Source: an uncultured Nitrospirales bacterium (lineage in GTDB: Bacteria; UBA10199; JADGCS01). From it: a DNA stretch of 64,000 nt. Made by a program: the position numbers and the translations under genes. The DNA is taken from the NCBI GenBank assembly GCA_964609965.1, contig CAZSTS010000003.1, positions 67,260-131,259 of the forward strand, read 5' to 3'. The notes beneath the pieces are model-generated. The model was not told the origin of the DNA, made no database searches, and was given only the letters and a program-made list of their open reading frames with translations. Of the stretch, positions 21,787-56,341 are shown piece after piece. Position 1 is the first letter of the stretch. Each line of letters opens with the position of its first letter.

Positions 21787-21788
21787 TT

Positions 21789-22659: not shown

Positions 22660-23475
22660 ATGATAGCCCTAAATGCCTTAAAAACAGTTCAATATAATGC
22701 TGTTGCCAAAACTCTTGATCTAAAACGACAGCATTCTTTTCTGGATGTTGGTTGTGCCACAGGCCGGCAATATATTTGCTTGGCAAAGAATACTTCCCGT
22801 GCTGTGGGAATTGATGTTAACGATGAAGCCATTTTAGCGACAAAGAAGCTGATTGAAAAGAAAAGACTAGGAAACATTGAAGCACAAGTTGTTGATGGAG
22901 AAAGCATTCCCTTTGCAGATCATGCATATGATCGTGTTCTTTGTGCAGATGTCGTTTCTATTGCCACTCACCCTGTTGGCCTTATCCAAGAATCCTTAAG
23001 AGTTCTCAAAAATGATGGCGCCTTAGTGATTTGTAATGGTACGGGCTATAAAACCATCCGAGATTTTTACCAATCCACTTCATTTTTTAAGAAATGTCTC
23101 AGATCAGTTTTATTAAAAATAACAGCCCTTCCCAAAACCTTGCTTCAGTTCTATCGCAGTCGCATTGCCAGAAACATTCAATTTTCAGATCAAGAATTGA
23201 TGCAAAGGTATGAGGATGTTGAGATTCATTTAGAGAGAGTGATTAAAGAATCTGGCGGTGTTGTTTGCAAAAAAAGACATAGTTTTTGTGGGCCCAATGA
23301 ATGGCTGATGGCCTGGATTCATCTGATAACTTGCGCTTTGAAGCTGCCAGTGAGCACAGTTAAATTTATTTCATTGGGTTTTTTGCCTTTGTTTCTTTTG
23401 TTGGAATTTCTGTTTTCAAAAAGGCAAGGGTTGTCAGTTATTTATTTAGTGAAGAAAAATTCTTCTTATGAGTGA
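22660..23475 (+). CDS. class I SAM-dependent methyltransferase
   Basis: LDVGCATGRQ motif I. Hydrophobic C-terminal segment. Confidence 0.7.
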   Translation: MIALNALKTVQYNAVAKTLDLKRQHSFLDVGCATGRQYICLAKNTSRAVGIDVNDEAILATKKLIEKKRLGNIEAQVVDGESIPFADHAYDRVLCADVVSIATHPVGLIQESLRVLKNDGALVICNGTGYKTIRDFYQSTSFFKKCLRSVLLKITALPKTLLQFYRSRIARNIQFSDQELMQRYEDVEIHLERVIKESGGVVCKKRHSFCGPNEWLMAWIHLITCALKLPVSTVKFISLGFLPLFLLLEFLFSKRQGLSVIYLVKKNSSYE

Positions 23476-27291: not shown

Positions 27292-28761
27292 ATGACATTG
27301 CCACTTGTTGAAAAAATATTTTCTCAGTTTTCAGAATCTCGAATTTTCTTTTGTCACTTCAAAAGTAACAACAGGCTCAAGGAAGCGCTTGAGGGAGAAG
27401 GTGATCTTGATCTTCTCTTTCACAAAAAAGACAGAGCTGCTGTAGAGAGTGTTTTACGTGAGTGTGGTATTATTCGATTTGTCAGATCTTGTCAGGATTC
27501 CCCAGCAGATATTGAACATTATTATGGTTTTGATGCGAATACAGGAACATTTGTTCATTTTCATCTTTATTATCATCTTGTTACAGGAGGGGCTCTTCTC
27601 AAAAATCATCACCTTGCCTGCGAAAGGGAATTAATAAATCGCTCAAACAGTAATGAGTTGGTTCCAACGCCTTGGTTGCAGGATGAATACAGTCTTCTTA
27701 TCGCACGCAAAATGGTTGAATCAGCATCTCTGCTTGAATCAATATTTTTATGGCGTGAATATGATCATTTTTTAGCAGAGTTGATTTGGTTAGAACAGAA
27801 ATTAAAACAAACCTCATCATCTGAAAATGAGACAATCCCTTTATTAAAGGAAATACCTGAGTCTCTTTTTCGAGATGCTTCTTTAGCTTTCAAGAGTAAG
27901 AAATCTTGGTTGAAGAGACGAGAGCTAGGTAAGATGTTTTGTTATTTTTTGAAGCCATATCAAATTCGCAGTTCTTTTGTGGCTTCAGTCTCTCGTGTTT
28001 TGATTCTTTTGAAGAAAATATTTAAGAAGATTCAAAAAACAAATAAGCTTGTTATGCCACAATCAGGCTTGTTGGTGGCTATTCTTGGTCCTGATCTTTC
28101 AGGGAAGAGCACCCTCACTCAGGAATTGGGAAAAAAATTTAGCAAACACTTTCAAGCAAAAGTCATTCATTCTGGAAAACCTCCTGCGTCCTGTTTGACA
28201 TTTTTTCCTAGGTTATTTCGTCGTTTTTTGAGGTTGTTTTATCTCAATGAACGCGCTGTTGACGCCGCTAATAGAAAAATGCCAGCGATTATCAAAAAAA
28301 CTTCCCTTATTTTCGCTATTCGCTGTTGTGTGATTGCTTATGATCGAATGCGAGTGGTTAAAAAAGCAAGAAACAAGGTGCAAAAGGGTTGTTTGGTTTT
28401 CAGTGATCGTTATCCAGGCCGCATACTTGGAAGTCCTGATGGTCCTGAGATTAATTCTATGAGACCACAAAACAAAGTGGTTCAAATGCTTGGCTCCTTG
28501 GAAGAATGGCTTTATCATCGTGTCTCAAAACCAGATGTTGTTTTGAATTTGACGGTTTCTTTGGGTGTTGCAAGACAACGCAACGAATCTCGCTCAAAGG
28601 TAGACAAAGAGACAGATGAGTATCTAAAAAAACTTTATGTGGCTGATAAACAAGAAAGTATTGATGGATCAATTTCTCATACGATAAATACTGGGGACAA
28701 ACTGGATGAGACGCTTTTACAAGCTTGTTCTTGTGTATGGAAAGAATTGGAAAAGACATGA
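27292..28761 (+). CDS. two-domain protein: N-terminal domain of unknown function (weak NTase-like GEGDLDLLF) + C-terminal thymidylate-kinase-like P-loop domain
   Basis: Walker A ILGPDLSGKST, DRY motif FSDRYPG, PDVVLNLTVSLGVARQR lid, as in the dTMP kinase family. Confidence 0.5.
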   Translation: MTLPLVEKIFSQFSESRIFFCHFKSNNRLKEALEGEGDLDLLFHKKDRAAVESVLRECGIIRFVRSCQDSPADIEHYYGFDANTGTFVHFHLYYHLVTGGALLKNHHLACERELINRSNSNELVPTPWLQDEYSLLIARKMVESASLLESIFLWREYDHFLAELIWLEQKLKQTSSSENETIPLLKEIPESLFRDASLAFKSKKSWLKRRELGKMFCYFLKPYQIRSSFVASVSRVLILLKKIFKKIQKTNKLVMPQSGLLVAILGPDLSGKSTLTQELGKKFSKHFQAKVIHSGKPPASCLTFFPRLFRRFLRLFYLNERAVDAANRKMPAIIKKTSLIFAIRCCVIAYDRMRVVKKARNKVQKGCLVFSDRYPGRILGSPDGPEINSMRPQNKVVQMLGSLEEWLYHRVSKPDVVLNLTVSLGVARQRNESRSKVDKETDEYLKKLYVADKQESIDGSISHTINTGDKLDETLLQACSCVWKELEKT

Positions 28762-29957: not shown

Positions 29958-31280
29958 ATGCGATCCTTCACAAAAGACACAATCATAACAATGGGTACAA
30001 AAATTCTACAAATGGGATTAGGATTTTTGTCGTCCATTATTGTGGCGAGAGTTTTGGGCCCAGAGGGAAGAGGTGTTTATGCGCTTATCTTTTTGTTGCC
30101 ATCACTTCTTATTTTAACTTTTTCACTTGGTATCGAAAATGCAACTGTTTTCTATATTGGGAGAAAAAAATATGAACTTGGTGAGATTGCTGGGGCAATT
30201 CTTGTTTTTGCTGCTATTTTGGGAACTGCAGCAGTACTTAGCGGTTTGTTTTTTATTTATTTCTTTGGGGAGGTGGTCTTTCCCTCTGTAAAACAGATTT
30301 TCCTGGTTGTGACGCTCTTGTTTATTCCCTTTCAGTTCTATTTAGCCTTGCTTACGAACATGGTTTTAGGGCTAGGTAAAATTGGAAAATACAATTTTAT
30401 TGGGTTGCTGCAAGGTTTTTCTTTCTGTATTTTTAATATCTTTCTTTTGATTGCCTTAAAAATGGATCTTCCGGGAGCTATTGTTGCTTATTTTATTGCG
30501 ATTTTGATTACTTGTTCTTGGGCATTTTTTGTATGCAAAAAGGAAGGCATAAAAATCCGTTTTCCTTTTCATAAAAGAATTTACAAGGATTTTCTGTTCT
30601 TTGGTAGCCAGAATTACCTAGGCAGCTTAGGAACATTTTTTCATCTCCGGATTGATGTATGGATGATTAGCATGTTTTTATCTACACAGGCGGTTGGACA
30701 TTATTCCATAGCTGCAAAGCTTTCGGAAGAGGTATGGTTGGTTTCTCTTGCTGCTGCAACAATCCTTTTTCAAAGAGTTACAGCAGAGAGAGATGAGAAA
30801 AGGTTGAACAGTCTTACCCCGCGTGTTTGTCGAAACGTTTTATTTATCACTTTTATAATGGCTCTGGGTGTTGCTGTTTTGGCTCCATGTTTCGTTATCT
30901 GGTTTTATTCTGATATGTACATGGCCTCTATTTTGCCATTTCAGGTCTTGTTGGTGGCATCCCTTGCCTGGGCAGGGTCACGTATTCTTGGGAATGACAT
31001 GACAGGCCGTGGGAGGCCCATGATTTACACGGGGAGTACTTTTGCCTCACTTCTTGTCAATATTGTTCTCAACATTTTATTGGTTAAAAAATATGGCATT
31101 GCTGGGATAGCCGCAGCTTCTGCCATTTCATATACTTGTATGTTTCTTATTCTGCTAGCTTATTACAAAAAGGTTTCAGGAAATAGTGTCAGCAATATTA
31201 TTCTTATTAAAAGGGAAGATTTTACAATGTACAAGAATATTTTTTTGAGAGTGAAAGGTTTTTTTAAAAGTACGGGCTGA
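29958..31280 (+). CDS. wzx: Wzx-type polysaccharide flippase (MOP superfamily) #2
   Basis: 440 aa polytopic protein with the MATE-like polysaccharide-biosynthesis-protein pattern. Confidence 0.65.
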   Translation: MRSFTKDTIITMGTKILQMGLGFLSSIIVARVLGPEGRGVYALIFLLPSLLILTFSLGIENATVFYIGRKKYELGEIAGAILVFAAILGTAAVLSGLFFIYFFGEVVFPSVKQIFLVVTLLFIPFQFYLALLTNMVLGLGKIGKYNFIGLLQGFSFCIFNIFLLIALKMDLPGAIVAYFIAILITCSWAFFVCKKEGIKIRFPFHKRIYKDFLFFGSQNYLGSLGTFFHLRIDVWMISMFLSTQAVGHYSIAAKLSEEVWLVSLAAATILFQRVTAERDEKRLNSLTPRVCRNVLFITFIMALGVAVLAPCFVIWFYSDMYMASILPFQVLLVASLAWAGSRILGNDMTGRGRPMIYTGSTFASLLVNIVLNILLVKKYGIAGIAAASAISYTCMFLILLAYYKKVSGNSVSNIILIKREDFTMYKNIFLRVKGFFKSTG

Positions 31281-31310
31281 TTTTATTGTTTTCACCGGGA
31301 GTTATGTAAA

Positions 31311-32186
31311 ATGAAAAAGAATCCTTTTTTTTTCATTATAGATGATGGTGCTTTTCCCTATGCCTTGCCAGAGAAGGAATGTCCTGTTGGCATGAAGGTG
31401 TATGAAAACATCTTAAAGATTGCGAAAGCATTTCAGGTAAGAATTCCCATTTGTTTGACTCTCAAGCATTTAGATTCAACAGGGATTTCAAAAGAGGCTG
31501 ATCCTGTTCCCTATTGTGATGAGCTTGTGTCTTTTTTAAAAGAAAATCAAAAGTATCTTGAGATAGGGTATCATGGATTGACTCATGAATATCAGCAACA
31601 TGTGGGAGAATTTTTCCGTTTGGATACAAATCAAGCTGTGCCTGAAGAAGTGCAAAGAGAACATATCCAACTGAGTCAGGATATATTTGAATCTTGGGGT
31701 TTGAATTTTCCTGAGCTTTTTGTCCCTCCCTATCATGCATGGGAAGAAGGCGTGACTGATCGGCTACTTTCAGAGCTGGGTGTAAAATACATTGTATCCA
31801 TGCCCATACTAAAAGTAGGGGCCCATCACTATACTTGGAAGGGGTCACAGCATTTGGCATTTTACCCGCGCAAGAGCCTGGGGCTCAGTGGTTCAGATTG
31901 TCATTTTTCGATGAACGATTTCCGTAAAATTCGATTTTATCCTCAAAAAACTGTTCTTGAATTTGTTAAGGATCACATTCAGCCCATATCACTCATGTCT
32001 AAGTTGAGAATTCATCATTCTTTGTTTCCCAAACCTGTTCATAGTTTTATGACTCATATTGGGAATTTTTTTGATGAATCACTCGATTTTTGGCTGAAAC
32101 TATTTGAATATGTTGAGAAAAATGAAGAATTATACTTATGTCGCTCAAACGAAGATGCTATGCAGTTTTATAATCAAATTAAATAA
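31311..32186 (+). CDS. polysaccharide deacetylase-like protein (NodB motif 1 IIDDGAF, His motif HGLTHEYQQH)
   Basis: Motifs seen in sequence. Contains a T10 tract at 31325-31334. Confidence 0.5.
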   Translation: MKKNPFFFIIDDGAFPYALPEKECPVGMKVYENILKIAKAFQVRIPICLTLKHLDSTGISKEADPVPYCDELVSFLKENQKYLEIGYHGLTHEYQQHVGEFFRLDTNQAVPEEVQREHIQLSQDIFESWGLNFPELFVPPYHAWEEGVTDRLLSELGVKYIVSMPILKVGAHHYTWKGSQHLAFYPRKSLGLSGSDCHFSMNDFRKIRFYPQKTVLEFVKDHIQPISLMSKLRIHHSLFPKPVHSFMTHIGNFFDESLDFWLKLFEYVEKNEELYLCRSNEDAMQFYNQIK

Positions 32187-32206
32187 ACCAATAGGGTGTT
32201 ATATTT

Positions 32207-33058
32207 ATGTGGCAAGGAACATATAAAATTTGGCAGAATAAGGAGTTTTGTAAGCTATATGCTCAGACATCTCATCGCCAACTTCACGAATGTGGCTATA
32301 CCAAGGTTTTAGTCTCTCAACAAAAGTACCTTGGGAATACCACGTTGTATCTTTATAATCCTCTTTCATCTGATTGGACTCTTCCAGTAGATTCATTGGC
32401 TAAAGAACTAGGTGTGGCGCGAGTTTGGGCTTACTTGACTCAGCCGTGTTTGGAAAAAGAAGCCTTTCTCAAGGAAGAATTCCATACCACATTGATTCCA
32501 CTCCACGAAGGAGAGGAAAAATTATGGAAAAGAGTAGGTGATAAGACTCGAAACATGGTCCGTAAGGGAAAAAAGGCAGGTGTTGAGGTGTCTCTTGCAG
32601 AAACTCAGGAGGATTTTGAAGGTTGGTGGGCTGTGTATCATCAGCTTACGCAGCAAATAGGCTTTCAGTCACAGAATTATGATTTTTGTAAAAAGCTTTT
32701 TGAAACACCCTCTTTGTCAAAACTATTTGTGGCTCGTCTTGGTTCAAAAATCATCGGAGGCTGTTTTTTTCTGACAGATGATTATCCCTTGTATTGGTTG
32801 GGTGCCTTTGATCGTGCCTATCAAAAAACCTCAGCTGGGCATGTGACGATGTGGGAAGCCATGCTTTATTTCATGTCTCATGGGTGTTCTCTTCTTGATT
32901 TAGGTGGTATTTCGGTTGGGGAAACAGACGGTCCCTCACGATTCAAGAAGAATTTTGGTGGCGATCTTCAGAAGGCCTATATTTATGAATGGCCTGTATC
33001 AAAAATGAAAAACTGTTTTTTGAAAGTGGCAAGTAAACTTCGAACTTTTGCTAAGTGA
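32207..33058 (+). CDS. FemAB-family / GNAT-fold acyl- or aminoacyl-transferase
   Basis: 283 aa. FemAB-like and BioF2-like acetyltransferase pattern (WWAVYHQLTQ..., FVARLGSKIIGGCFF, LYWLGAFD). The wider FemAB-deacetylase-GT-Wzy-sugar-transferase-Wzz-Wza context resembles PEP-CTERM/exosortase EPS loci. Confidence 0.45.
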   Translation: MWQGTYKIWQNKEFCKLYAQTSHRQLHECGYTKVLVSQQKYLGNTTLYLYNPLSSDWTLPVDSLAKELGVARVWAYLTQPCLEKEAFLKEEFHTTLIPLHEGEEKLWKRVGDKTRNMVRKGKKAGVEVSLAETQEDFEGWWAVYHQLTQQIGFQSQNYDFCKKLFETPSLSKLFVARLGSKIIGGCFFLTDDYPLYWLGAFDRAYQKTSAGHVTMWEAMLYFMSHGCSLLDLGGISVGETDGPSRFKKNFGGDLQKAYIYEWPVSKMKNCFLKVASKLRTFAK

Positions 33059-33065
33059 GGTTGTG

Positions 33066-34154
33066 ATGCATATTTGTTTTTTGGCTGGTGCTAATTCTAT
33101 TCATTCAAAACGCTGGGTTGAGTTCTTTGCTCAAAGAGGCCATCGTGTTTCTTGGATTTCACTTGGAGTAGGAGAAACACAAGTCTGTGAGGGAATTGAT
33201 TTTTTCAATGTTGAGAAAAAGGGGCCCAGGATTTTGAGGCCTCTATATTATTACTCGCAGATTCGAGAGATATTGAAACGACAAAAACCCGACGTGCTTC
33301 ATGTTCACCAATTATGGCTTGATGGCGTGATTGCAGCTTTTTCACGCCAACACCCCTTTGTGATAACCCCTTGGGGTTCGGATATCCTTTTGTTGAAAAA
33401 TAAGCCCATTCAAAAGAAATTAACTCGGTATGCAATTTCAAAAGCTGATTTTGCCACATGTGATGGAGACAATACACGCGAAGCTCTTGTGAATTTTGGC
33501 ATGTCACCAGATAAAATAGAGAAAATCATGTTTGGTGTAGATGTTGATCTCTATCAGCCTCGTCAAAAGCCAGAAGTGCTTAAGAAAAAGTTGGGAATCA
33601 CTGATGGCCCAATAGTTGTTTCTCTCAGAAGTTTAAAGCCTTTGTATGATGTGGCTACTTTTATTCGTTCGATGCCATCGGTTCTCAAAGAAGTGCCTAA
33701 CGCTGTTTTTGTTGTAGTTGGTGACGGTCCTCAAAGAGGTGAACTGGAAAACCTAGCTAAAGAGCTTGGTGTTTATGATTCAATTAAGTTTGTTGGAGCT
33801 GTTGAGGCCCACGAGATACCTCAATACCTAAACCTAGCTGATATTTATGTCTCTACCTCGCTTTCAGATAGTGGATTGGCGGCAAGTACTGCTGAGGCCA
33901 TGTCTAGTGGTGTGCCTGTGATTGTCACAGATTCAGGTGATAATACATTGTGGATTGAAGAGGGCCAAAATGGCTATGTTGTTGGGTTGAGTGACTATAA
34001 GGCTTTGGCCTCGCATACAATTCAGCTGCTTTTCGATGAGGTGTTGAGGATGAACATTGGGCAGAATAATCGAGACATGATTGATAAAAAAAATAATTAT
34101 GATCGTGAAATGAAAAAAATGGAGAAGACTTACCTGAGCTTGTTAAACAGGTAA
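33066..34154 (+). CDS. GT4 family glycosyltransferase
   Basis: GT4 C-terminal domain (STSLSDSGLAASTAEAMSSGVPVIVTDSGDN). GAGG RBS before ATG 33066. Confidence 0.75.
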   Translation: MHICFLAGANSIHSKRWVEFFAQRGHRVSWISLGVGETQVCEGIDFFNVEKKGPRILRPLYYYSQIREILKRQKPDVLHVHQLWLDGVIAAFSRQHPFVITPWGSDILLLKNKPIQKKLTRYAISKADFATCDGDNTREALVNFGMSPDKIEKIMFGVDVDLYQPRQKPEVLKKKLGITDGPIVVSLRSLKPLYDVATFIRSMPSVLKEVPNAVFVVVGDGPQRGELENLAKELGVYDSIKFVGAVEAHEIPQYLNLADIYVSTSLSDSGLAASTAEAMSSGVPVIVTDSGDNTLWIEEGQNGYVVGLSDYKALASHTIQLLFDEVLRMNIGQNNRDMIDKKNNYDREMKKMEKTYLSLLNR

Positions 34155-34169
34155 TTTTCTGAATCGTTT

Positions 34170-34868
34170 ATGTTAAATGAATTCAAAAAATACGCGCGAC
34201 CTTTTTATTGGAAAATGCAAAAGTTTCGTGCTCTCTTATGTGGAACAACAAAATTTGAGAAACAATGGGAAAGTCTATACCAGGAGGATGGAGAGAAGCT
34301 CATTCTTGATAGCTGGGAAGATCGGTTTAGTTTGCGTCGCCAGTATTTTAGGGATTATTTCAAAAGACATGTTCCGTTTGAGAGTGTTTTAGAATTTGGT
34401 TGTCATTGCGGCTGTAATTTATATGGCCTAGCAAAAGAATATCCAGAACTTAATCTTATGGGGATTGATGTTAATCCCCAGTTGATAAAAATGGGCCGAG
34501 CTTTATTGGGACAAGAAGAACTAGGTAATATTTCATTGCGAACTGGCAATGTTCAATCCTTAAAAGAGATAGGAGATAAAAGTATTGATGTTGTATTTAC
34601 AGATGCTGTGTTGATCTATGTTGGGCCTGACCAGATTCATGAGGTTTTCGATCATTTCAAGCGCATTGCGCGTAAATCTGTAATTTTGCAAGAATGGCAT
34701 CACGATGAAGAGAAAGAGAGCCTCTTTTATAAGGGGTTCTGGGTATGGAATTATCGAAAATTTTTTTCTGATAAAACAAAAATTAATATTACAAAAATTC
34801 CTCCAGATATTTGGCCTGCTGATGGATGGAGAAAATATGGAAATGTGATCGAAATAGAGTTCGAATAG
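34170..34868 (+). CDS. class I SAM-dependent methyltransferase
   Basis: VLEFGCHCGCNL motif I. Confidence 0.7.
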   Translation: MLNEFKKYARPFYWKMQKFRALLCGTTKFEKQWESLYQEDGEKLILDSWEDRFSLRRQYFRDYFKRHVPFESVLEFGCHCGCNLYGLAKEYPELNLMGIDVNPQLIKMGRALLGQEELGNISLRTGNVQSLKEIGDKSIDVVFTDAVLIYVGPDQIHEVFDHFKRIARKSVILQEWHHDEEKESLFYKGFWVWNYRKFFSDKTKINITKIPPDIWPADGWRKYGNVIEIEFE

Positions 34869-34888
34869 AGAATTGGAAAGAGGTGTTT

Positions 34889-36181
34889 ATGAAAAAAGTG
34901 CTGATTATTGGACATTTTTGGCCCTATCACCAGGGAGGTAGTAAGCGAATATTGGGCTTAGCAAAGTATTTAGCAGAGTTTGGTTGGAAGCCAACGATTC
35001 TTACTGGAAAATTGAATTCAGGAAAGCCAGAAATTGATATTCATTATATTGAAACAGAATCAGGTAATCGCATAGCTCAATTTAAACGTTTTTTTGGATT
35101 GGACAGCAAAAAAAGTATCCAAGCACAAATGGGCATTTCTGCACCTACCCGTGAGAAAGAGGGTTCTTTAAGCACGCGATTGGTCAAGATGGTTGAGGCG
35201 GTTGTGACATATCCAGATACTGAAATTGCTTGGAAAACTCATGCAATGAAAGCTGTCGAAAAATTGATGGTAGAGCATAAATATGATGCTGTCTTAAGTG
35301 TTTGGCCCATCACGGCACACATGATTGGTCATGAGATACATAAGAAATATGGTGTGCCTTGGTTTGTAGATTTTCCAGACATGTGGGCCTTCACGTATGC
35401 TTATCGGTATGGAGAGATAAGACGTTATTTTGACAAAAGGCTTGAAAGAAAAACAATGATTCCAGCGAAAACAATTGTCACATCTTCATGGCCACAATCA
35501 CGGTTGTTAGAAAAACTACACAAAAGAGAGCGTATCCATACGATTAAAATGGGCTATGATCCTGAGTATGAAAATAACCCGCCTATACCATTAACGGATA
35601 AATTTACGATTACCTATACAGGTGTTTTGTATGGAAAAGAACGAAACCCATACAAGTTTTTTGAGGCCCTAGCTTCTCTTATTCGAAAACGGCTCATAGA
35701 TCCCAAAGATGTTGACGTGAGGTTTTATGGAAAGTTTGAAGACTGGGTTCAAGAAGATATTGAGCGACATGGGCTGCAGGATATTGTGAAGCAATATGGC
35801 TCTGTTTCGTGGATGGACTGTTTACAAAGGCAAAGAGAATCCCAGTTGCTTTTACAACTGAATTGGGAAGACCCAAAAGAAAAAGGCGCTTACTCAGGAA
35901 AAATAGCTGAATACCTGGCTGCCTTTCGACCTGTGATTTCTGTGGGCGGGTTTGGTAAAGATGTTATGGAAGAATTGTTTATTGAAACAAACGTTGGTGC
36001 CTATTGTATTGATGTTTCCGAGACTGAAACAGCGTTATTAAACTATTACAATGAATTCAAAACTCATGGTTTTGTAGATTTTAAAGGGACATTAAATGCC
36101 ATTACGAGTTACAGTTATCGAGAAATGGCTGGTCAGTTTGCTAAAATATTAAACCAAGTAGAGGAAGGTAATCAGTGCTAG
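34889..36181 (+). CDS. glycosyltransferase (GT4-like, GT-B fold)
   Basis: N-terminal GG-containing domain (IIGHFWPYHQGGSKRIL). C-terminal KIAEYLAAFRPVI. Confidence 0.5.
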   Translation: MKKVLIIGHFWPYHQGGSKRILGLAKYLAEFGWKPTILTGKLNSGKPEIDIHYIETESGNRIAQFKRFFGLDSKKSIQAQMGISAPTREKEGSLSTRLVKMVEAVVTYPDTEIAWKTHAMKAVEKLMVEHKYDAVLSVWPITAHMIGHEIHKKYGVPWFVDFPDMWAFTYAYRYGEIRRYFDKRLERKTMIPAKTIVTSSWPQSRLLEKLHKRERIHTIKMGYDPEYENNPPIPLTDKFTITYTGVLYGKERNPYKFFEALASLIRKRLIDPKDVDVRFYGKFEDWVQEDIERHGLQDIVKQYGSVSWMDCLQRQRESQLLLQLNWEDPKEKGAYSGKIAEYLAAFRPVISVGGFGKDVMEELFIETNVGAYCIDVSETETALLNYYNEFKTHGFVDFKGTLNAITSYSYREMAGQFAKILNQVEEGNQC

Positions 36182-37539
36182 TTTTTGTTTGTATAGTCTT
36201 CTTTGGCTTGTGTTTCCTAGGGCTTGCGGCAACTCGACCAGGCCTTTGGAGCCGGCTTTACATCTTTTCGACTATCATTTTATGTGGCATGATCTATGAG
36301 CAAGTGAGTTTTATTGATGAATACTTGATGAATTGCGTGATTTTGGGAGGGTGGTTACTTTTTTCTCTTGGGATCATGGACACTACCCTTCTTCCACAAA
36401 ATAAACTCAGCCGATTGCACAGATTTCTTTTTTACACCCTTTGCTTTTACTTAGTTTTTCAGAGTGTTCGTGGTGTTTATCTGACTGACATAAGAAAACT
36501 GAGATGGGTTATTTATTTTCTCTCTATTGCGTTGAGTGCCTGGATGATATCTCGTAAATCCTATGCTCTTCCTCAAGGAGTTGATTTAGTAAGAGTTGTG
36601 ACCAAGTCTTTGTTTGCGTATTTTATTCTCTATCTTTTTTATGGTTTTACTGCCGAAATTCTTTTTGGCATGAGCTGGTCTGCTGGTCAAAATATTCTTT
36701 GGGGTGGTTCATCTTACGCCATTTTTCCTTCGCTCATAGCAATCCCTTTTAGCTTTATTTTAGCTAAATATGGAGAGCAGCAGGATCGCATGATAGCTTG
36801 GGCAACTCTCTTTTTAGTTGTGATTGCAGGCTTCTATTTTGATTCACGGGCTTGCTATTTTGTTATTCTAGCCTGTCTTGGGATCGTAGCGCTCAAACTT
36901 GATTTGAAAAGGTTAATAGTAATGGGTGTGTTCTTTTTTGCTGTGCTCCTCTTTTTTACACAATTTGTTTGGCCTGAATATCAGAACTTTGAATCCTTTT
37001 GGAGTACAAGTATTGCCTCAAGCAGCAACCTTCTTTGGAGTCAAGAAGTCTCAGACCTTAGGCCAGGCGATATTGGTCGGTTTGCGCACCTGCATCTTCT
37101 TCCAAAAATAGTGGCAAAACATCCTGATGTCTTATTATTTGGAACAGGTTATCGAGCTTCAGGTTGGTTAATTGGTCCGGGGCTTGCTGAAGTTTTTATG
37201 GAAATGGGAAAATTTGGTGCAGCCAAAAGCAATGCAGGTTATGAATCAACAGTTGGGATAATCAGTATTGCTCTCGAAACTGGATTGGTTGGGCTTTTCC
37301 TTTTAATGGCCAATGTACTATGCACACTAGTTTATGTTCTTCGAAAGTGTAAAGAAATCCAAACAAAACTTTTTTTGGGACTCATATTAACAGCTTCATT
37401 TTTCTGGTTATTTGTCACAAACCCAACAGATATGCCAATATATTTTCTTTTGATTATGCCTCATGGATTTTTATACGCCTTTGTTGATGGCAAGAATACA
37501 GCTCAAGAAATGAAGGGAGTAGAACTCCAAAATTCTTAG
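36175..37539 (+). CDS. O-antigen ligase/polymerase family (Wzy_C) membrane protein
   Basis: GTG start with a GAGGAAGG RBS. Polytopic, with a periplasmic loop carrying GTGYRASGW...ESTVGIISIALETGLVGL, a Wzy_C-like motif. Confidence 0.55.
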   Translation: MLVFVCIVFFGLCFLGLAATRPGLWSRLYIFSTIILCGMIYEQVSFIDEYLMNCVILGGWLLFSLGIMDTTLLPQNKLSRLHRFLFYTLCFYLVFQSVRGVYLTDIRKLRWVIYFLSIALSAWMISRKSYALPQGVDLVRVVTKSLFAYFILYLFYGFTAEILFGMSWSAGQNILWGGSSYAIFPSLIAIPFSFILAKYGEQQDRMIAWATLFLVVIAGFYFDSRACYFVILACLGIVALKLDLKRLIVMGVFFFAVLLFFTQFVWPEYQNFESFWSTSIASSSNLLWSQEVSDLRPGDIGRFAHLHLLPKIVAKHPDVLLFGTGYRASGWLIGPGLAEVFMEMGKFGAAKSNAGYESTVGIISIALETGLVGLFLLMANVLCTLVYVLRKCKEIQTKLFLGLILTASFFWLFVTNPTDMPIYFLLIMPHGFLYAFVDGKNTAQEMKGVELQNS

Positions 37540-37554
37540 AGCAAGGAATAATGT

Positions 37555-38706
37555 ATGAGATATTTGATCCAATTTATCACAAAAAGTTCTCTTAAGAGGT
37601 TCTTTTTGAGCAGACTTTTTTTTCTCTGTTTTACACTATTATTTGTGCTAACGGGTCTTCTTTCATGGTATTTTGATTATCATTACATCATCACAATTCA
37701 ATCAGTTATTGTTTTGTTTTCTATCATTCTTGCTGTGATCCTCGTTACCTGGACCGAAGAGTTTACCTCAATGCCAGCAGAGAGATTCATGAATGTATTA
37801 ACAGGATTCGGAACAAAAGGAGAGGATGCTGTTTTTGATGAGCAGGGTGTTCCTTTGGTGAGCCTTAGAAAAATTGGAGAAATACATTATAACCCTGTTC
37901 GTGTGGCCATGGCTGGGTTTGATTATTACGAAGAATGGAAAAAGTCAGGAGAAGAGAGCGTTATTCAAAAAATGTATCATTGCACAGATTCTCTGATGGA
38001 AAACATGTTGATGAAAAAGTCTGGTGATAAGTCTTTTGCAGTGTGGGAGTATCACTATCCATGGGCAGAGCTTTCTCCTCCATGGGTTTCAGGGTTGGCA
38101 CAAGGGGTTTGTGTTCAGCTTTTTTCGATTGCCTACGAGTGTTCAAAAAATACCAAGTATTTAGAGGCAGCACAAATGACATTCAATGCCTTTGCTGTTG
38201 AAGTGAAGGATGGAGGCGTGACTTATAAAGATAGCCCTGATGAATGGTGGTATGAAGAGTATGCCAAGGCTGGCTGTGTGGAAAGTCGTGTGCTAAATGG
38301 GATGATATATGCCCTGGCAGGTATTCATGATTATCAAAGAATATCAAAAGATTCTCTAGCTCAAGAAGCTTTTGATAGGGGTGTCAGGAGTTTATTAAAA
38401 AGATTAAATGATTTTGATACAGGGTGGTGGACTTACTATGATTCGTGTGGTCTCATTGCTTCAAAATCATATCACAAGGTTCATATTAATCAGATGGAAC
38501 AAATGTATGATTTAACTGGGATAGAGGAATTCAAAAAAACTGCTGTTCGTTGGAGAAAATATAAAGCACCATTTTTTATTCGTGAATTTATTAGGCAAAA
38601 GCCAGGCTGGCATGATTTGGTAGTGCTTTTTCTTAATATGGGATTTGTATTTATCGTGATCGAAGTCTTATATATTGCTTGGAAATATTTTTTATCATTC
38701 CATTAA
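37555..38706 (+). CDS. D-glucuronyl C5-epimerase-like protein (GLCE C-terminal-domain homolog) with N- and C-terminal TM anchors
   Basis: Motif series matches animal heparosan C5-epimerase as I recall it: PWVSGLAQG (WYSAMAQG), WYEEYAKAGCVESRVLNGMIYALAGIHD (WYEEYP...VLNGFMYSLIGLYD), HINQMEQ (HINQLQ), RWRKY (RWKSY). Confidence 0.6.
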   Translation: MRYLIQFITKSSLKRFFLSRLFFLCFTLLFVLTGLLSWYFDYHYIITIQSVIVLFSIILAVILVTWTEEFTSMPAERFMNVLTGFGTKGEDAVFDEQGVPLVSLRKIGEIHYNPVRVAMAGFDYYEEWKKSGEESVIQKMYHCTDSLMENMLMKKSGDKSFAVWEYHYPWAELSPPWVSGLAQGVCVQLFSIAYECSKNTKYLEAAQMTFNAFAVEVKDGGVTYKDSPDEWWYEEYAKAGCVESRVLNGMIYALAGIHDYQRISKDSLAQEAFDRGVRSLLKRLNDFDTGWWTYYDSCGLIASKSYHKVHINQMEQMYDLTGIEEFKKTAVRWRKYKAPFFIREFIRQKPGWHDLVVLFLNMGFVFIVIEVLYIAWKYFLSFH

Positions 38707-38712: not shown

Positions 38713-39837
38713 ATGACCAAAATTGTTCATCTCACATCAGTTCATCAGAGCTATGATGTCCGGGTGTTTCATAAGGAATGCGCCTCACTGTCAGCTGCAG
38801 GGTATAATGTAACTCTTGTGGCGCAGCACACTTCTGATGAAGTTGTTGATGGCATAAAAATAAGGTCTCTCTGTAAGCCCAAGAGCCGATTCGATCGAAT
38901 GATAAGAAGTCCTTTGAAGCTTTATGAAATAGCTATGGAGGAAAAGGGCTCTGTTTATCACTTTCATGATCCAGAGCTTATCCCGCTTGGGGTTTTTTTG
39001 AAGCTTCGAGGAAAAAAAGTTATCTATGATCTTCACGAAGACAGTCCAAGACAAGCGCTTCATAAACACTGGCTCAAGCCTTGGCTGCGCTACTTGGTAT
39101 CCTGGTTTCTTTCTGTTATAGAAAAAATAGGGTGTCTTTTTTTTGATGGGCTTATTGCAGCGACACCTCATATTGCAAAAAGGTTTTCGCAGAAAAAAAC
39201 GATTGTCGTTCAAAATTTTCCTCGAACAAAGGGTTTGAAACTTGAGTCAGAAACGCCATATCATGAAAGAGAGAATGTTGTAGTTTATATTGGCGGTTTG
39301 TCTCAGGAGAGAGGGATTCTAGAGCTCGTACACATGCTAGAAAAACTTCCAATAAGTTTGAAAGCGCGTCTTGAGCTTGCTGGAAACTTTTCGCCTGAAT
39401 CTTTTCAGAAAGATCTTTCTGAAAGGGATGGCTGGAAAAAAGTGTGTTATTTAGGATGGCAAAATCCATCTAAGATTAAATCTCTTTTGTCACGGGCACG
39501 CGTAGGGGCTGTTGTTTTGTATCCTACACCGGCTTATCAGGAAAGCTATCCTATTAAAATGTTTGAGTACATGGCAGCGGGATTGCCAGTGGTTGCTTCG
39601 GATTTTTCTTTATGGCAAGAGATTGTTTCGCAGGCAAATTGTGGCTTGTTAGTTGATCCAAAAGACCCAAAGAGTATTGCTAAGGCTGTTCAGTGGCTAT
39701 TAGACAATTCTAATGAAGCGCAAAAAATGGGAGAAGCTGGCATGAATGCGGTCAAGGAAAAATACAATTGGGAATTGGAAGAAAAAAAATTATTGGGCTT
39801 ATATAATAATCTTACAGGAAAAGTAGTTTCTACATGA
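38713..39837 (+). CDS. GT4 family glycosyltransferase
   Basis: EX7E region FEYMAAGLPVVASDFSLWQEIV. Confidence 0.75.
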   Translation: MTKIVHLTSVHQSYDVRVFHKECASLSAAGYNVTLVAQHTSDEVVDGIKIRSLCKPKSRFDRMIRSPLKLYEIAMEEKGSVYHFHDPELIPLGVFLKLRGKKVIYDLHEDSPRQALHKHWLKPWLRYLVSWFLSVIEKIGCLFFDGLIAATPHIAKRFSQKKTIVVQNFPRTKGLKLESETPYHERENVVVYIGGLSQERGILELVHMLEKLPISLKARLELAGNFSPESFQKDLSERDGWKKVCYLGWQNPSKIKSLLSRARVGAVVLYPTPAYQESYPIKMFEYMAAGLPVVASDFSLWQEIVSQANCGLLVDPKDPKSIAKAVQWLLDNSNEAQKMGEAGMNAVKEKYNWELEEKKLLGLYNNLTGKVVST

Positions 39838-41696: not shown

Positions 41697-41728
41697 AGCA
41701 CATAAGAATATTTTTGTTTGGAGAAATT

Positions 41729-42364
41729 ATGATAAAAAGAGTTTTTGATCTCATGTTGTCATTATTTGGTTTGATTGTCATGAGTCCTTGTCTTCTCTTT
41801 TTTGCGGTTGCCATTAAAGTGGACAGCCCAGGTCCTATCTTTTATCGTGGGCTTCGTGTGGGCAGAGGCGGAAAAACATTTCGTATTTTTAAGTTTCGAA
41901 GCATGGTGGTTGATGCAGAAAAATCAGGGGTGACGTCAACGAGTGGACAAGACGATCGCGTGACAAGAATGGGAAAGCTCATCCGTAAGTTCAAAATGGA
42001 TGAATTTGCGCAGCTGATTAATGTCTTTCTTGGTGATATGAGTCTTGTGGGACCTCGTCCTGAGGTACAAAAATTTGTTGATCAATACACCGAAGAAGAA
42101 AGGCAAATCTTAAGCATGAGACCTGGTATTACTGATTGGGCTTCTATCAAGTTTCATAATGAAGGAGATATTATTGAAGCCTCTGGTATTTCAGATGCAG
42201 ATGAGGCCTATGCCAAACTTATCAGACCAGAGAAATTACGCTTACAATTAAAGTATATAAGAGAGCGTAGCCTCTGGATAGATATTAAAATCATTCTTGC
42301 AACCCTATCGACAATTATTGTAACAAGGGTGGACGCTAAATCCGTGAGCGTCCCGGAGACCTAA
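41729..42364 (+). CDS. undecaprenyl-phosphate sugar phosphotransferase (bacterial sugar transferase, PglC/WbaP C-terminal-like; initiating enzyme)
   Basis: KRVFDLMLSLFGLIVMSP, PGPIFYRGLRVGRGGKTFRIFKFRSM, DMSLVGPRP motifs. GGAG RBS. Confidence 0.85.
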   Translation: MIKRVFDLMLSLFGLIVMSPCLLFFAVAIKVDSPGPIFYRGLRVGRGGKTFRIFKFRSMVVDAEKSGVTSTSGQDDRVTRMGKLIRKFKMDEFAQLINVFLGDMSLVGPRPEVQKFVDQYTEEERQILSMRPGITDWASIKFHNEGDIIEASGISDADEAYAKLIRPEKLRLQLKYIRERSLWIDIKIILATLSTIIVTRVDAKSVSVPET

Positions 42365-42386
42365 GAAAGAGGGAGATTTAAAGACT

Positions 42387-43493
42387 ATGAAAGTACCATT
42401 TTTTAATTATCCACATTTATTTGAGAGTGAAAAAGAAGGCCTTATTGACGTGATAAAAGATGTTGGGGGGCGTGGCGCTTTTATCATGCAAAAAGATATG
42501 GAGATTTTTGAGAAGGAGCTGACTGAATACACAGGAGCTAAGTATGCTGTGGGAGTGGCTAATGCCACAGATGGAATGCAAATGGCTCTAATGGCTGGTG
42601 GTATTGGAGACGGTGATGAAGTGATTATTAGCTCACACACCATGGTGGCTACAGCTAGTGCTGTGCATTTTTCTGGGGCAACGCCTGTACCTGTTGAGGC
42701 AGGGCCTGATCACATGATGGATCCAGCGTCTATTGAAAAAGCTATCACATCCAAAACAAAGGTGATTTTGCCTACGCAGCTTAATGGACGTACCTGTAAT
42801 ATGGATGCTATTTCTAAGATTGCTGATAAAAATGGTTTGCAAATATTCGAAGATGCAGCTCAAGCCCTTGGGTCAAAATATAAAGGAAAATGCGCAGGAA
42901 CATTTGGTCGTGGTGCTTGTATTAGTTTTTATCCCGCAAAAGTTTTAGGTTGTTTAGGGGATGCAGGGGCTGTGCTCACAAATGATGAAAAGGTTTACTA
43001 TAATCTCATCAGGCTCAGAGATCATGGTCGCGGTGCTGATGGCGAAATTACAATGTGGGGCTTCAATAGTCGGCTTGATAATTTGCAGGCTGCCATTCTT
43101 TCATACAATTTCAAAAAATACCCGCAAATAGTAGAACGAAGACGTGAAATTGCTGGCATGTATCAAGAGCAGCTTGGTAGCCTTAAAGAACTTGTTCTTC
43201 CTCCTGCGCCGCTAGATAATTCTGATCACTTTGATGTGTATCAAAACTATGAAATAGAAACCCCGCGTCGCGATGAATTACAGGCTTATTTAGCTGAACG
43301 TGGTATTGGAACATTGGTTCAATGGGGAGGCACTGCGATTCATCAGTTTAAGAGTTTGGGATTTCAGCAACATCTTCCTCAAACAGATAGATTATTTGAG
43401 CGCATGCTCATGATTCCTATGAATATGTCATTAACAAATGAGCAAGTTATCACCGTTTGTGATACTATAAAGAGTTTCTACCGTGACAAATAA
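42387..43493 (+). CDS. DegT/DnrJ/EryC1 PLP-dependent sugar aminotransferase (PglE-like)
   Basis: DegT fold (SFYPAKVLGCLGDAGAVLTND). Confidence 0.75.
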   Translation: MKVPFFNYPHLFESEKEGLIDVIKDVGGRGAFIMQKDMEIFEKELTEYTGAKYAVGVANATDGMQMALMAGGIGDGDEVIISSHTMVATASAVHFSGATPVPVEAGPDHMMDPASIEKAITSKTKVILPTQLNGRTCNMDAISKIADKNGLQIFEDAAQALGSKYKGKCAGTFGRGACISFYPAKVLGCLGDAGAVLTNDEKVYYNLIRLRDHGRGADGEITMWGFNSRLDNLQAAILSYNFKKYPQIVERRREIAGMYQEQLGSLKELVLPPAPLDNSDHFDVYQNYEIETPRRDELQAYLAERGIGTLVQWGGTAIHQFKSLGFQQHLPQTDRLFERMLMIPMNMSLTNEQVITVCDTIKSFYRDK

Positions 43494-44472
43494 AAACAAA
43501 CAAATCATCGACCTCTATCGCATGATGCTTCGGATCCGGATGTGTGAAGAGAGCCTTGTTGCCCCTATAGAGAAGCGAGAAATTCTCTGTCCAGCTCATC
43601 TTTATACAGGAGAAGAGGCTGTTGCTACTGGCGTGTGTGCACACCTAAATCACTCAGACACGATTTTTAGTAATCACCGTTCGCACGGACATTATTTAGC
43701 CAAAGGTGGTGATTTTAAGAAAATTATCGCTGAGATTTATTGTAAAGAAAATGGGTGTTCGCGAGGTCGTGGTGGTTCCATGCATGTCTATGATACGTCT
43801 GTTGGCATGATGGGATCAGCTCCTATTGTCGCGGGAACGATTTCTTTGGCTCTTGGTTCAGCACTGGCTTCTCGTATTAGAAAAGACAACTGCGTTTCTG
43901 TCACTTTTTTAGGTGATGGAGCCACAGGAGAGGGTGTTTTATATGAATCTCTTAATTTTGCAGCCTTAAAAAATCTTCCTGTGATTTTTGTTTGCGAAAA
44001 CAATTATTATTCTACACATCTTCATATTTCAGAAATTCGAGTGAGTGATCAGATTTATAAGGTGGCAGAACCTTTTGGTGTGAAGACACATCGAGTTGAT
44101 GGCAATGATGTTCTTGCTGTCAGCAAGATTGCAGAGGAAGCTGTCTCTCTTTGTCGCGAAGGAAAAGGCCCTGTTTTTATCGAAGCACTCACTTATAGAA
44201 TGCGAGGGCATGTGGGTCCTGATGACAACATTCAGGGAACGCACACAGATATTCGACCAAAAGAAGAAATAGAACAGTGGAGAGAAAAAGACCCCATTTC
44301 TCGTTTAGAAAAACATATTTTTGCTCATGATATTTGTTCGCAATCCTACTTAGATGACATCAAGGAATGCTTGCAAAAAGAAATAGATGAGGCTCACGAA
44401 GAAGCGCGATCAAGTGTGTTTCCAGATGAAAAAGAGATAAACCAATATGTGTTCAGAAAAGAAGAATCGTAA
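43483..44472 (+). CDS. TPP-dependent dehydrogenase E1 component alpha subunit (pyruvate/acetoin dehydrogenase E1-alpha family)
   Basis: LYRMMLRIRMCEE, GDGATGEG TPP motif, NNYYSTHL. GTG start assumed. Confidence 0.75.
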   Translation: MTNKNKQIIDLYRMMLRIRMCEESLVAPIEKREILCPAHLYTGEEAVATGVCAHLNHSDTIFSNHRSHGHYLAKGGDFKKIIAEIYCKENGCSRGRGGSMHVYDTSVGMMGSAPIVAGTISLALGSALASRIRKDNCVSVTFLGDGATGEGVLYESLNFAALKNLPVIFVCENNYYSTHLHISEIRVSDQIYKVAEPFGVKTHRVDGNDVLAVSKIAEEAVSLCREGKGPVFIEALTYRMRGHVGPDDNIQGTHTDIRPKEEIEQWREKDPISRLEKHIFAHDICSQSYLDDIKECLQKEIDEAHEEARSSVFPDEKEINQYVFRKEES

Positions 44473-45439
44473 ATTGACCTATGGGTTGGCTATTAATGAA
44501 GCCTTTCATCAAATGATGGAAAAGGACCCTTCAGTTGTTTTGATTGGCCAGGGCGTCAAGAGTCCTTGGTATGTCGGAGACACAGCTTTAGGGCTTATTG
44601 ATAGGTTTACTGAAGAGCGTGTGATTGATACACCTGTCTCAGAAAATGCCATGACTGGTGCCGCTGTTGGCGCTGCCATAGTTGGCATGCGGCCTATTGT
44701 GGTTCACCCTCGTTGTGATTTTATGATGTACGCTTTGGACCCTATCATTAATGAGGCAGCTAATTGGTATTACATGAGTGGTGGTTGCAGTTCAGTGCCC
44801 GCTGTTTTTTGGGGAGTTATTAATAGAGGAGGTGAGCAAGCAGCACAACATTCACAAGCGATTCATGCTTTTTTTGCGCATACACCAGGCTTAAAAGTGG
44901 TTATGCCTGCAACACCCTATGATGCTAAAGGGCTCATGATTTCTGCTATTCTAGATGATAATCCAGTGGTTTTTATAGATGATCGTTGGTTGTATCGTCT
45001 AGAAGACGAGGTTCCTAAGGATTTTTATTCTATTCCTATTGGTCAAGGCATTGTTCATCGAACGGGAAAAGATGTTTCTATTATTGCCGTATCCTACATG
45101 GTTCAAGAGGCACTTAAAGCTGCTGATGAACTGGAAAAAGAGGGCGTGTCTGTTGAAGTCCTTGATCCTAGAACCATTAAACCTTTGGATGAGGGCCTTA
45201 TTCTTGATTCTGTCAAAAAAACAGGTCGTGTTATTGTTGCAGATGTTGGTTGGCAAAGCTTTGGTGTTGCCGCCGAAATCAGCTCTCTTATTTCTGAAAA
45301 GGCTTTTTCTCATCTCAAGGGTCCTGTCAAAAGAGTGGCTCTTCCAGATATCCCTGCGCCGGCAAGTCGTACGTTAGAAAAAGCTTATTATCCAAGAGCC
45401 CCCCACCTCATTTCAGCAGTCAAAGAAATCATTTCATAG
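44447..45439 (+). CDS. TPP-dependent dehydrogenase E1 component beta subunit (transketolase-like)
   Basis: LTYGLAINEAFHQMMEKDP N-terminus, pyrimidine-binding and C-terminal transketolase domains. Start overlaps the alpha stop. Confidence 0.75.
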   Translation: MCSEKKNRKLTYGLAINEAFHQMMEKDPSVVLIGQGVKSPWYVGDTALGLIDRFTEERVIDTPVSENAMTGAAVGAAIVGMRPIVVHPRCDFMMYALDPIINEAANWYYMSGGCSSVPAVFWGVINRGGEQAAQHSQAIHAFFAHTPGLKVVMPATPYDAKGLMISAILDDNPVVFIDDRWLYRLEDEVPKDFYSIPIGQGIVHRTGKDVSIIAVSYMVQEALKAADELEKEGVSVEVLDPRTIKPLDEGLILDSVKKTGRVIVADVGWQSFGVAAEISSLISEKAFSHLKGPVKRVALPDIPAPASRTLEKAYYPRAPHLISAVKEIIS

Positions 45440-54483: not shown

Positions 54484-54556
54484 GCCGACCTAGCTCAGCT
54501 GGCAGAGCAACTGACTTGTAATCAGTAGGTCATCGGTTCGATTCCGATGGTCGGCT
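54484..54556 (+). tRNA. thrU: tRNA-Thr (anticodon TGT)
   Basis: Cloverleaf read manually: acceptor GCCGACC/GGTCGGC, anticodon loop CTTGTAA. Confidence 0.85.
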
Positions 54557-54601
54557 CAATAAGGCTGTTTTGATTATCAAAACGGTCTTTTGTTTATTCT
54601 C

Positions 54602-54684
54602 GGAGGGATGTCCGAGTGGCTAAAGGAGACGGGCTGTAAACCCGTTGGCTCACGCCTACGGTGGTTCGAATCCACCTCCCTCCA
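54602..54684 (+). tRNA. tyrU: tRNA-Tyr (anticodon GTA), long variable arm
   Basis: Acceptor GGAGGGA/TCCCTCC, anticodon loop CTGTAAA, extra arm. Confidence 0.85.
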
Positions 54685-54725
54685 CAAAAAAGGTTTTTCT
54701 TATGAAAAACCTTTTTTACTTTATT

Positions 54726-56337: not shown

Positions 56338-56341
56338 GTTA

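Follow-up and report, generated by a model that had tools for sequence, protein, structure and literature searches.

A minimal membrane-anchored GLCE-family protein encoded in a surface-glycan locus of an uncultured Nitrospirales bacterium

Introduction

Prokaryotic members of the D-glucuronyl C5-epimerase (GLCE) family, Pfam PF06662, were listed by Raedts et al. in 2011, sited among glycosyltransferases (GTs) in O-antigen-type loci that include those of E. coli O112ab and S. boydii 15 (PMC3068255). The O antigen of E. coli O112ab contains L-iduronic acid (L-IdoA), and the family gene in its cluster is named gae (PMC7685785). In this work we analysed one more PF06662 protein encoded in a bacterial surface-glycan locus, a pattern already described in 2011. 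Its gene, referred to here as the epimerase gene, lies on the forward strand of a stretch of 64,000 nucleotides (nt) from an uncultured Nitrospirales bacterium (assembly GCA_964609965.1, contig CAZSTS010000003.1, positions 67,260 to 131,259), which we call the window and to which all coordinates refer. Like this protein, the O-antigen and capsule members of the family, Gae of E. coli O112ab and its counterpart in S. boydii 15, are short (~300-400 amino acids, aa), are encoded among GTs in Wzx/Wzy-type loci and are supposed to provide an L-uronate for a strain-specific glycan. By description, the O112ab system has L-IdoA with a glucuronic acid (GlcA) precursor derived from Ugd, whereas the locus studied here has a candidate amino-uronate pathway and an epimerase from a rare clade with two N-terminal helices.

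A single bacterial enzyme of the family has been assayed, that of Bermanella marisrubri RED65 (448 aa), for which PMC13308652 cites Raedts et al. 2013. According to that citation, the assay used O-desulfated heparin and an alignment suggests a GLCE-like mechanism. Animal GLCE (PDB 6HZZ, 4PW2) is, at 617 aa, considerably longer than the 383 aa protein described here, which lacks both the N-terminal beta-hairpin dimerisation domain and the central beta-sandwich domain of the animal enzyme. Animal GLCE has one type II anchor and a lumenal catalytic domain and uses N-sulfated heparosan, whereas our protein has three hydrophobic helices, a catalytic domain that probably faces the cytoplasm and, probably, a different substrate.

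Epimerisation of a uronate at C5 after its incorporation into a glycan, as we propose it here, is also known from AlgG and AlgE, from dermatan-sulfate epimerase and from Agl32 of Halobacterium, the folds or active sites of which are unrelated to that of our protein. AlgG and AlgE are commonly described as right-handed beta-helix proteins. An epimerase of their type was ruled out for our protein, as no such Pfam match was found and an alpha/alpha barrel was predicted as its fold. The catalytic residues of GLCE, all of which our protein has, are missing from Agl32 (PMC13308652). VpsJ of Vibrio cholerae resembles our proposal, by description, in its chemistry: it was proposed to convert ManNAcA to L-GulNAcA, an epimerisation at C5 of an N-acetyl amino-uronate, on a bactoprenyl-diphosphate-linked disaccharide of Vibrio VPS, between two glycosyltransfer steps of a Wzx/Wzy system. 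Its authors, however, assigned it to a class of its own, since sequence searches were uninformative and the fold resembled the AGE type only distantly; it was not reported as a PF06662 protein (PMC13463779). Literature searches for PF06662 by name and for GulNAc3NAcA gave nothing useful.

Results

Family, fold and active site

The product of the epimerase gene is a GLCE-family protein reduced to the catalytic domain and its membrane anchors, with an intact active site. Its product matched the Pfam model C5-epim_C (PF06662) with 158.7 bits against a cut-off of 23.3 (E 1.5e-46) over profile positions 5-188 of 188, far beyond chance, and the only matches of a phmmer search against PDB sequences were GLCE proteins, namely zebrafish Glce (9.6e-17) and human GLCE (3.6e-16). 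No NCBIfam model matched. The homology to animal GLCE proposed in a first-pass annotation, made by a model from the sequence alone, is thereby borne out, and the four motifs on which it relied were all present verbatim when the translation was searched with regular expressions: WYEEY at residues 232-236, VLNGMIYALAGIHD at 246-259, HINQ at 310-313 and RWRKY at 332-336.

Human GLCE relies for catalysis on E499, Y500, N510, Y560 and Y578 (PMC13308652). In the phmmer alignment to 6HZZ, where adding 90 to the chain numbering gives the positions in human GLCE, and by position checks, all five were found in place as E235, Y236, N248, Y295 and Y306. Four of them are widely kept in the family: among 221 family cores N248 occurs in 219, Y306 in 218, Y295 in 217 and Y236 in 191. 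A conserved block further towards the N-terminus contains P100 and N113, both invariant in the homologue alignment A1; N113 is found in 196 of the 221 cores and the adjacent P114 in 204.

An AlphaFold model built from a 24-sequence alignment was confident (pLDDT 90.6, pTM 0.84), and the top eight Foldseek matches to it were GLCE chains (E ~1e-9). Its alpha/alpha-barrel fold superposes on the solved structures of GLCE. The ~260 soluble residues all align to the helical domain of GLCE, with short strands only in the rest of the model. Structural comparison and inspection of the catalytic residues, both recommended in the first-pass annotation, have hence given the outcome expected for a family member, and neither of the two outcomes that it named as refuting its claim, absence of a PF06662 match or loss of the catalytic residues, was observed. 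With domain, fold and catalytic residues all found, every family-defining feature that can be tested is present, and from these we predict epimerase activity.

The coordinates of the gene, of its parts and of its neighbours are collected in Table 1. An internal GTG at V31, the start in one JGI gene call (P0126), would remove the first helix and was rejected; the upstream ATG was favoured because the ribosome-binding site is well placed before it and because the N-terminal extension, i.e. the lysine/arginine (K/R)-rich tail and helix 1, is kept in the nine nearest clusters, divergent as they are. An identical protein is encoded by 24 metagenomic contigs, the longest of 271 kb. EF-Tu of the window is 86-89% identical to proteins of metagenome-assembled genomes labelled 'Deltaproteobacteria bacterium' and ACD.

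Table 1. Coordinates of the epimerase gene, its parts and related genes in the window
Feature	Position	Strand	Remarks
Epimerase gene	37555..38706	+	predicted GLCE-family (PF06662) uronosyl C5-epimerase; ATG start, 383 aa + stop
Ribosome-binding site AAGGA	37543..37547	+	7 nt before ATG; read directly from sequence
Hydrophobic helix 1	37606..37662	+	residues 18-36; hydropathy 2.17; model helix 20-39
Hydrophobic helix 2	37687..37743	+	residues 45-63; hydropathy 2.86; model helix 43-83; leads into catalytic domain
Conserved N-terminal motif block GVP...YNP	37846..37896	+	residues 98-114
PF06662 C5-epim_C domain	38038..38559	+	residues 162-335; catalytic E235, Y236, N248, Y295, Y306
C-terminal hydrophobic helix	38620..38676	+	residues 356-374; model helix 352-382
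Wzy-like multi-helix membrane protein	36175..37539	+	immediately upstream, 15-nt gap
GT4 glycosyltransferase	38713..39837	+	Pfam Glycos_transf_1; directly downstream, 6-nt gap; co-inherited with epimerase
Upstream half-cassette: Wzx, DUF2334/polysaccharide deacetylase, FemAB-like acyltransferase, GT4, methyltransferase, GT4-like	29958..36181	+	Pfam
Initiating phosphoglycosyl transferase (Bac_transf), DegT aminotransferase, thiamine pyrophosphate (TPP)-dependent E1 alpha/beta pair	41714..45439	+	Pfam; conserved in L085, L086, L087, L089
Candidate amino-uronic acid precursor genes	3883..12416	+	Pfam and NCBIfam
TviB/WbpA-like UDP-GlcNAc 6-dehydrogenase	3883	+	Pfam/NCBIfam
Gfo/Idh/MocA oxidoreductase	6626	+	Pfam
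DegT aminotransferase	7654	+	Pfam
LpxD-like N-acyltransferase	9629	+	
PIG-L deacetylase	10680	+	Pfam
WecB-type 2-epimerase	11310	+	WecB 339.8 vs cut-off 210

Membrane helices and orientation

The first-pass annotation placed transmembrane (TM) helices at both ends of the protein. Helices were indeed found at each end in a Kyte-Doolittle scan and in the AlphaFold model, but this description was incomplete in that the N-terminus has two. A K/R-rich tail (R2, K10, K14, R15) precedes helix 1, and helix 2 aligns with the sole N-terminal helix of those homologues that have one helix on either side of the domain. The C-terminal helix follows a conserved amphipathic stretch, FFIREFIRQKP, and is itself followed by a tail of nine residues with one Lys.

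Homologues were then classed by the hydrophobic segments flanking the domain, and K/R residues were counted in tails of up to 15 residues. In the 1+1-helix class, with 87 homologues, the N-tail (2.2 K/R) and the C-tail (3.6 K/R) are both basic, which points to an N-in/C-in arrangement with the domain outside, as in the type II animal enzyme. Ten proteins, ours and its nearest relatives, have 2+1 helices; their N-tail carries 3.5 K/R, the loop between helices 1 and 2 carries 1.0 and the short C-tail 1.1. The C-tails of the two classes differ with a Mann-Whitney p of 1.3e-5, a value that overstates independence given the only ~10 related sequences of the 2+1 clade. In a neighbour-joining tree the 2+1 proteins form one clade nested among the 1+1 proteins, and among 5.8 billion proteins this clade is rare, with about a dozen clusters at 90% identity. 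By the positive-inside rule, the charge bias would correspond to an N-terminus inside, helix 1, the loop outside, helix 2, the catalytic domain inside, the C-terminal helix and the C-terminus outside. We infer from these sequence features that the catalytic domain of this clade faces the cytoplasm.

Fusion proteins lend this reading independent support. P0248, an orthologue of 1,393 aa whose epimerase part is 48% identical to ours and which occupies the same cassette position in its locus (L088:10001-14182), begins with a signal-peptide-like helix 1, after which ~1,000 aa that include a heparinase II/III-like domain precede helix 2, the epimerase and the C-terminal helix. With helices 1 and 2 enclosing an exported domain, its epimerase would lie on the opposite side of the membrane from that domain. 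P0248 thereby pairs a lyase-like and an epimerase domain across the membrane, and its heparinase-like domain is consistent with a uronate-containing polymer.

Other fusions show that the family as a whole is not bound to one compartment. P0378 joins a GT4 to an epimerase and has no TM helix, which indicates that cytoplasmic family members exist; dockerin, TIG, CARDB and discoidin fusions behind signal peptides indicate that outside-facing ones exist as well. The fusion proteins P0378, P0359, P0292, P0336 and P0289 comprise between them the GT4 fusion, one of polysaccharide deacetylase/DUF2334, epimerase and discoidin, and those with dockerin, CARDB and TIG. In the deacetylase fusion there is a parallel to the conserved DUF2334 gene of the cassette described below.

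A conserved cassette around the gene

The epimerase gene stands in an unbroken run of genes on the + strand, with gaps of at most 15 nt around it. As the first-pass annotation noted, it is surrounded by GT genes, of GT4 type at 33048, 34826 and 38713 and of GT2 type at 39834, and directly follows a Wzy-like open reading frame (ORF). The order Wzx–deacetylase–FemAB-like–GT4–GT4'–Wzy-like–epimerase–GT4 is conserved in five other, independent metagenomic loci (L085-L089), whose epimerases are 41-52% identical to ours. The upstream genes occur there in the same order with 36-60% identity; tblastn gave 43-55% for the deacetylase, 38-46% for the FemAB-like protein, 46-55% for the GT4 and 49-60% for the GT4-like protein. 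Orthologues of the Wzy-like protein (28-42% identity) lie at the same position in all five loci. The downstream GT4 follows the epimerase directly in L086-L089 (36-44%) and also in the further locus L090 (47%). The trio of Wzy-like protein, epimerase and GT4 is the invariant centre of the cassette.

The product of the Wzy-like gene has at least nine hydrophobic segments and a loop of ~100 aa and matched neither Pfam nor NCBIfam models; one orthologue, that of L086, gave a weak Wzy_C match. Its designation as Wzy-like follows from this topology and from the weak match of that one orthologue. The DUF2334/deacetylase and FemAB-like (Acetyltransf_6) genes (31311..33058) form a conserved pair in 6/6 cassettes, which suggests that a sugar of the repeat unit is N-deacetylated and then acylated anew, possibly with an aminoacyl group. 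The TPP-dependent E1 pair (43483..45439), which is pyruvate-dehydrogenase-E1-like and 47-78% identical between loci, is an unusual component of a glycan locus.

Genes for a uronate precursor

All uronate-forming genes found near the epimerase gene belong to the set at the 5' end of the window (Table 1), and among the ORFs scanned in the window no UDP-glucose dehydrogenase was found. The sole nucleoside-diphosphate (NDP)-sugar 6-dehydrogenase scored 508 bits with the TviB model, compared with 27-164 bits for models of UDP-glucose dehydrogenase. The set of dehydrogenase, oxidoreductase, aminotransferase, acyltransferase and 2-epimerase resembles the five-step WbpA/B/E/D/I route to UDP-ManNAc3NAcA of P. 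aeruginosa and Bordetella. The best assignments for this pathway were below equivalog level, with WecB above its cut-off.

A 1+1 homologue that is 40% identical to our protein is encoded in L090, where dehydrogenase, 3-dehydrogenase, acetyltransferase, aminotransferase and WecB-like genes near the epimerase gene make up the only uronate pathway. This locus is the cleanest available case that links the family to a 2,3-diacetamido-uronate pathway. It comes from another metagenome and is compact (L090:2519-14306), with Wzz, a kinase, a phosphatase, the precursor set, Wzx, the PF06662 epimerase, a GT4, Wzy, a WecB-like gene and a second GT4. L088 and L089 likewise have WecB-like genes (50-55% identity) flanking the cassette. 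That a nearby NDP-sugar dehydrogenase is a rule for the whole family was considered and rejected, and the linkage is retained for the window and L090 only: of the 49 GTDB loci of at least 15 kb with distant homologues, a single one (L036) had a dehydrogenase within 10 kb in a tblastn search with that of the window. The GTDB genome scan behind these loci used a 7-sequence alignment and retrieved distant homologues only (<=32% identity), mostly from metagenome-assembled genomes of Solirubrobacterales; their loci tell little about the clade studied here.

Abundance of the family

When 1.84 billion representatives at 50% identity were searched exhaustively with HMMER, 4,189 proteins matched at E<=1e-3, of which 2,341 reached E<=1e-10. 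Homologues in Desulfobacula, Oceanithermus, Methanosarcina, Flavobacteriales and others already bear the NCBI or JGI label 'D-glucuronyl C5-epimerase family protein' or 'heparosan-N-sulfate-glucuronate 5-epimerase'. The statement in the first-pass annotation that such epimerisation is rare in bacteria does not stand in this form, in view of ~4,200 cluster representatives at 50% identity and of the O-antigen loci listed in 2011. What is rare is the demonstrated chemistry, with one bacterial enzyme characterised; a gene in the context of a glycan locus is a known pattern.

Discussion

We favour, with moderate confidence, an explanation in which the protein is a GLCE-type epimerase that faces the cytoplasm and acts on a lipid-linked repeat unit, probably with an N-acetylated amino-uronate as its target. 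The Tyr/Glu acid-base set, E235, Y236, Y295 and Y306 together with N248, would take up and return the C5 proton as in GLCE. This exchange would occur on a hexuronate already transferred into the glycan and, by inversion, would turn a D-series residue into one of the L-series. A catalytic domain in the cytoplasm could not act on polymer made by Wzy, which would leave an undecaprenyl-diphosphate (Und-PP)-linked intermediate as the natural substrate, presumably between two GT4 steps and before flipping by Wzx. Since the WbpA/B/E/I-like set comprises the only uronate-forming genes nearby, the target would be an N-acetylated amino-uronate of D-ManNAcA or D-ManNAc3NAcA type, converted to its L-gulo epimer, rather than GlcA.

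What the analysis shows is membership of the family, the fold, a complete catalytic set, three hydrophobic helices and the cassette; action after glycosyl transfer, orientation and substrate are proposed. An amino-uronate substrate converted from D-manno to L-gulo type is a tentative assignment from the gene content of these loci. Doubtful at present is the more specific scenario that gain of a helix and loss of the basic C-tail turned the clade towards the cytoplasmic face, where it would act on an Und-PP-linked N-acetylated (di)amino-uronate, again from D-manno to L-gulo.

Several observations weigh against our proposal. As to orientation, TM segments were called with a home-made Kyte-Doolittle hydropathy script and not with a trained predictor, the charge comparison concerns a small clade, as stated above, and a profile search for further 2+1-helix members of the clade yielded none that were new. 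A domain facing the cytoplasm would moreover set our protein apart from animal GLCE and, as far as their topology can be inferred, from most prokaryotic homologues. As to the precursor, the TviB match of 508 bits is under the NCBIfam equivalog cut-off of 592, the N-acyltransferase is LpxD-like and not WbpD-like, and the dehydrogenase gene is 33 kb upstream of the epimerase gene and may feed a different residue. Three of the related cassettes (L085-L087) have no dehydrogenase within 10 kb, in addition to the sparse linkage among GTDB loci mentioned above. Ugd may be encoded elsewhere in the genome. All PF06662 enzymes characterised so far act on GlcA/IdoA (PMC13308652).

The alternative that survives best, although we hold it to be unlikely, is the one put forward in the first-pass annotation: an enzyme that faces the periplasm and works at the level of the polymer, after flipping and polymerisation by Wzy, in the way GLCE acts on heparosan and AlgG on polymannuronate. 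The basic tails of the 87 1+1 homologues, the dockerin, TIG, CARDB and discoidin fusions behind signal peptides and the position next to the Wzy-like gene are all in line with it, and animal GLCE and the Bermanella enzyme do act on polymer (PMC13308652). In the clade of our protein, however, an extra N-terminal helix follows a basic (K/R-rich) tail, and the basic tail at the C-terminus has been lost. A periplasmic domain would put the five-K/R N-tail outside, and the exported domain of P0248 between helices 1 and 2 argues in the same direction.

Slightly less likely still is a canonical glucuronyl C5-epimerase, converting GlcA to L-IdoA with a UDP-glucose dehydrogenase outside the window, while the amino-uronate genes would serve other residues. 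It would agree with the known specificity of the family and with the lack of a nearby dehydrogenase in L085-L087, and it has a precedent in E. coli O112ab, with L-IdoA in its O antigen and a family member in its cluster (PMC3068255; PMC7685785). The only dehydrogenase among the scanned ORFs of the window is nevertheless the TviB/WbpA-like one, and in L090 the only uronate pathway by the epimerase is of amino-uronate type. Considered simply as a matter of substrate, the conversion of GlcA to IdoA seems to us improbable to a similar degree.

Epimerisation at the level of the nucleotide sugar, from UDP-D-uronate to UDP-L-uronate before transfer, as assumed for Gae, is clearly less probable. A review of E. 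coli O antigens draws such a UDP-L-IdoA pathway for Gae, explicitly without experimental support (PMC7685785), and a domain facing the cytoplasm could reach UDP-sugars. GLCE enzymes, however, bind extended oligosaccharides and require flanking sugars (PMC13308652). A lipid-linked substrate agrees better with the three membrane helices and with a gene that is closely linked to the Wzy-like and GT4 genes, whereas the precursor genes lie 25-33 kb upstream. That the protein is no epimerase at all, its alpha/alpha barrel being a lyase, a hydrolase or a non-catalytic scaffold for a Wzy/GT complex, is very improbable for a protein with the complete catalytic set of GLCE.

If epimerisation of an amino-uronate on the lipid carrier holds true, the protein would be the first GLCE-family enzyme with such a substrate and a candidate for the unassigned C5-epimerase step of the L-gulo acetamido-uronic acids found in bacterial O antigens and exopolysaccharides (EPS). 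It would widen the substrate range of GLCE-type chemistry and help predict rare L-uronates from genomes. PF06662 is a large family with only one bacterial member assayed; the value of the present gene is that of a lead. A concrete hypothesis that can be tested follows from its conserved cassette, from its linkage to WbpA/B/E/I-type genes and from the fusions that inform on topology, namely that some members of the family would act at the cytoplasmic face on lipid-linked intermediates and yield L-configured amino-uronates.

Further features of the locus

The glycan locus extends on one strand from about 6.6 kb to 49.7 kb in three blocks. The precursor block (3.9-18.8 kb) contains, besides the genes of Table 1, an AsnB-like amidotransferase, two formyltransferases, a WbmS-like protein and one or more further DegT aminotransferases. 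The AsnB-like, formyltransferase and WbmS-like genes (14477..18810), together with a radical-SAM gene (20329..21786), recall loci for uronamide-containing and N-formylated O antigens. The middle block holds a Wzx-like gene, the radical-SAM gene and others. In the cassette block (30-45 kb) the epimerase gene is followed by GT4, GT2, methyltransferase, Bac_transf, DegT and the TPP-dependent E1 alpha/beta pair, and the cassette by Wzz, a PglF/CapD-like dehydratase and an SLBB export protein. Of the components of a Wzx/Wzy-type locus, Wzx was found at 29958 and 18847 (Polysacc_synt), the initiating phosphoglycosyl transferase at 41714 (Bac_transf, E 1.3e-60), the chain-length regulator Wzz at 45605 and the export protein (SLBB) at 48597.

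An XrtA/PEP-CTERM EPS locus was considered on account of the FemAB-like, stp-like and amidotransferase matches. It was rejected, as all scores were far below the NCBIfam cut-offs (pepcterm_femAB 48 vs 260, stp2 113 vs 409, eps_aminotran_1 457 vs 817).

Two Wzx-type flippase genes are present on the same strand, at 18847..20325 and 29958..31280, and among the scanned ORFs upstream of 28725 no GT was found. The two flippases may belong to one mega-locus or to two fused glycan systems. Several sizeable ORFs had no or only a marginal Pfam match (21756..22658, 23468..24985, 27292..28761 and 34826..36181); in the 505-aa product of the one at 23468, at least nine hydrophobic segments were counted, so that it might be another protein of polymerase- or ligase-like type.

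An RfaH/LoaP-like antiterminator gene lies at 5957..6436 (TIGR01955, 76.7 bits, below cut-off). Downstream of it, at 6527..6534, the ops core is present in exact form as GGCGGTAG; the window has no second match, and by chance 0.41 would be expected. It falls within the 190-nt gap before the gene at 6626, the first of the ~43-kb one-strand glycan operon. At the 3' end of the window, tRNA-Thr/Tyr/Gly/Thr, tufA, tRNA-Trp, (secE) and nusG follow one another in the standard arrangement (54484..57930), which shows that the glycan locus abuts a core housekeeping region.

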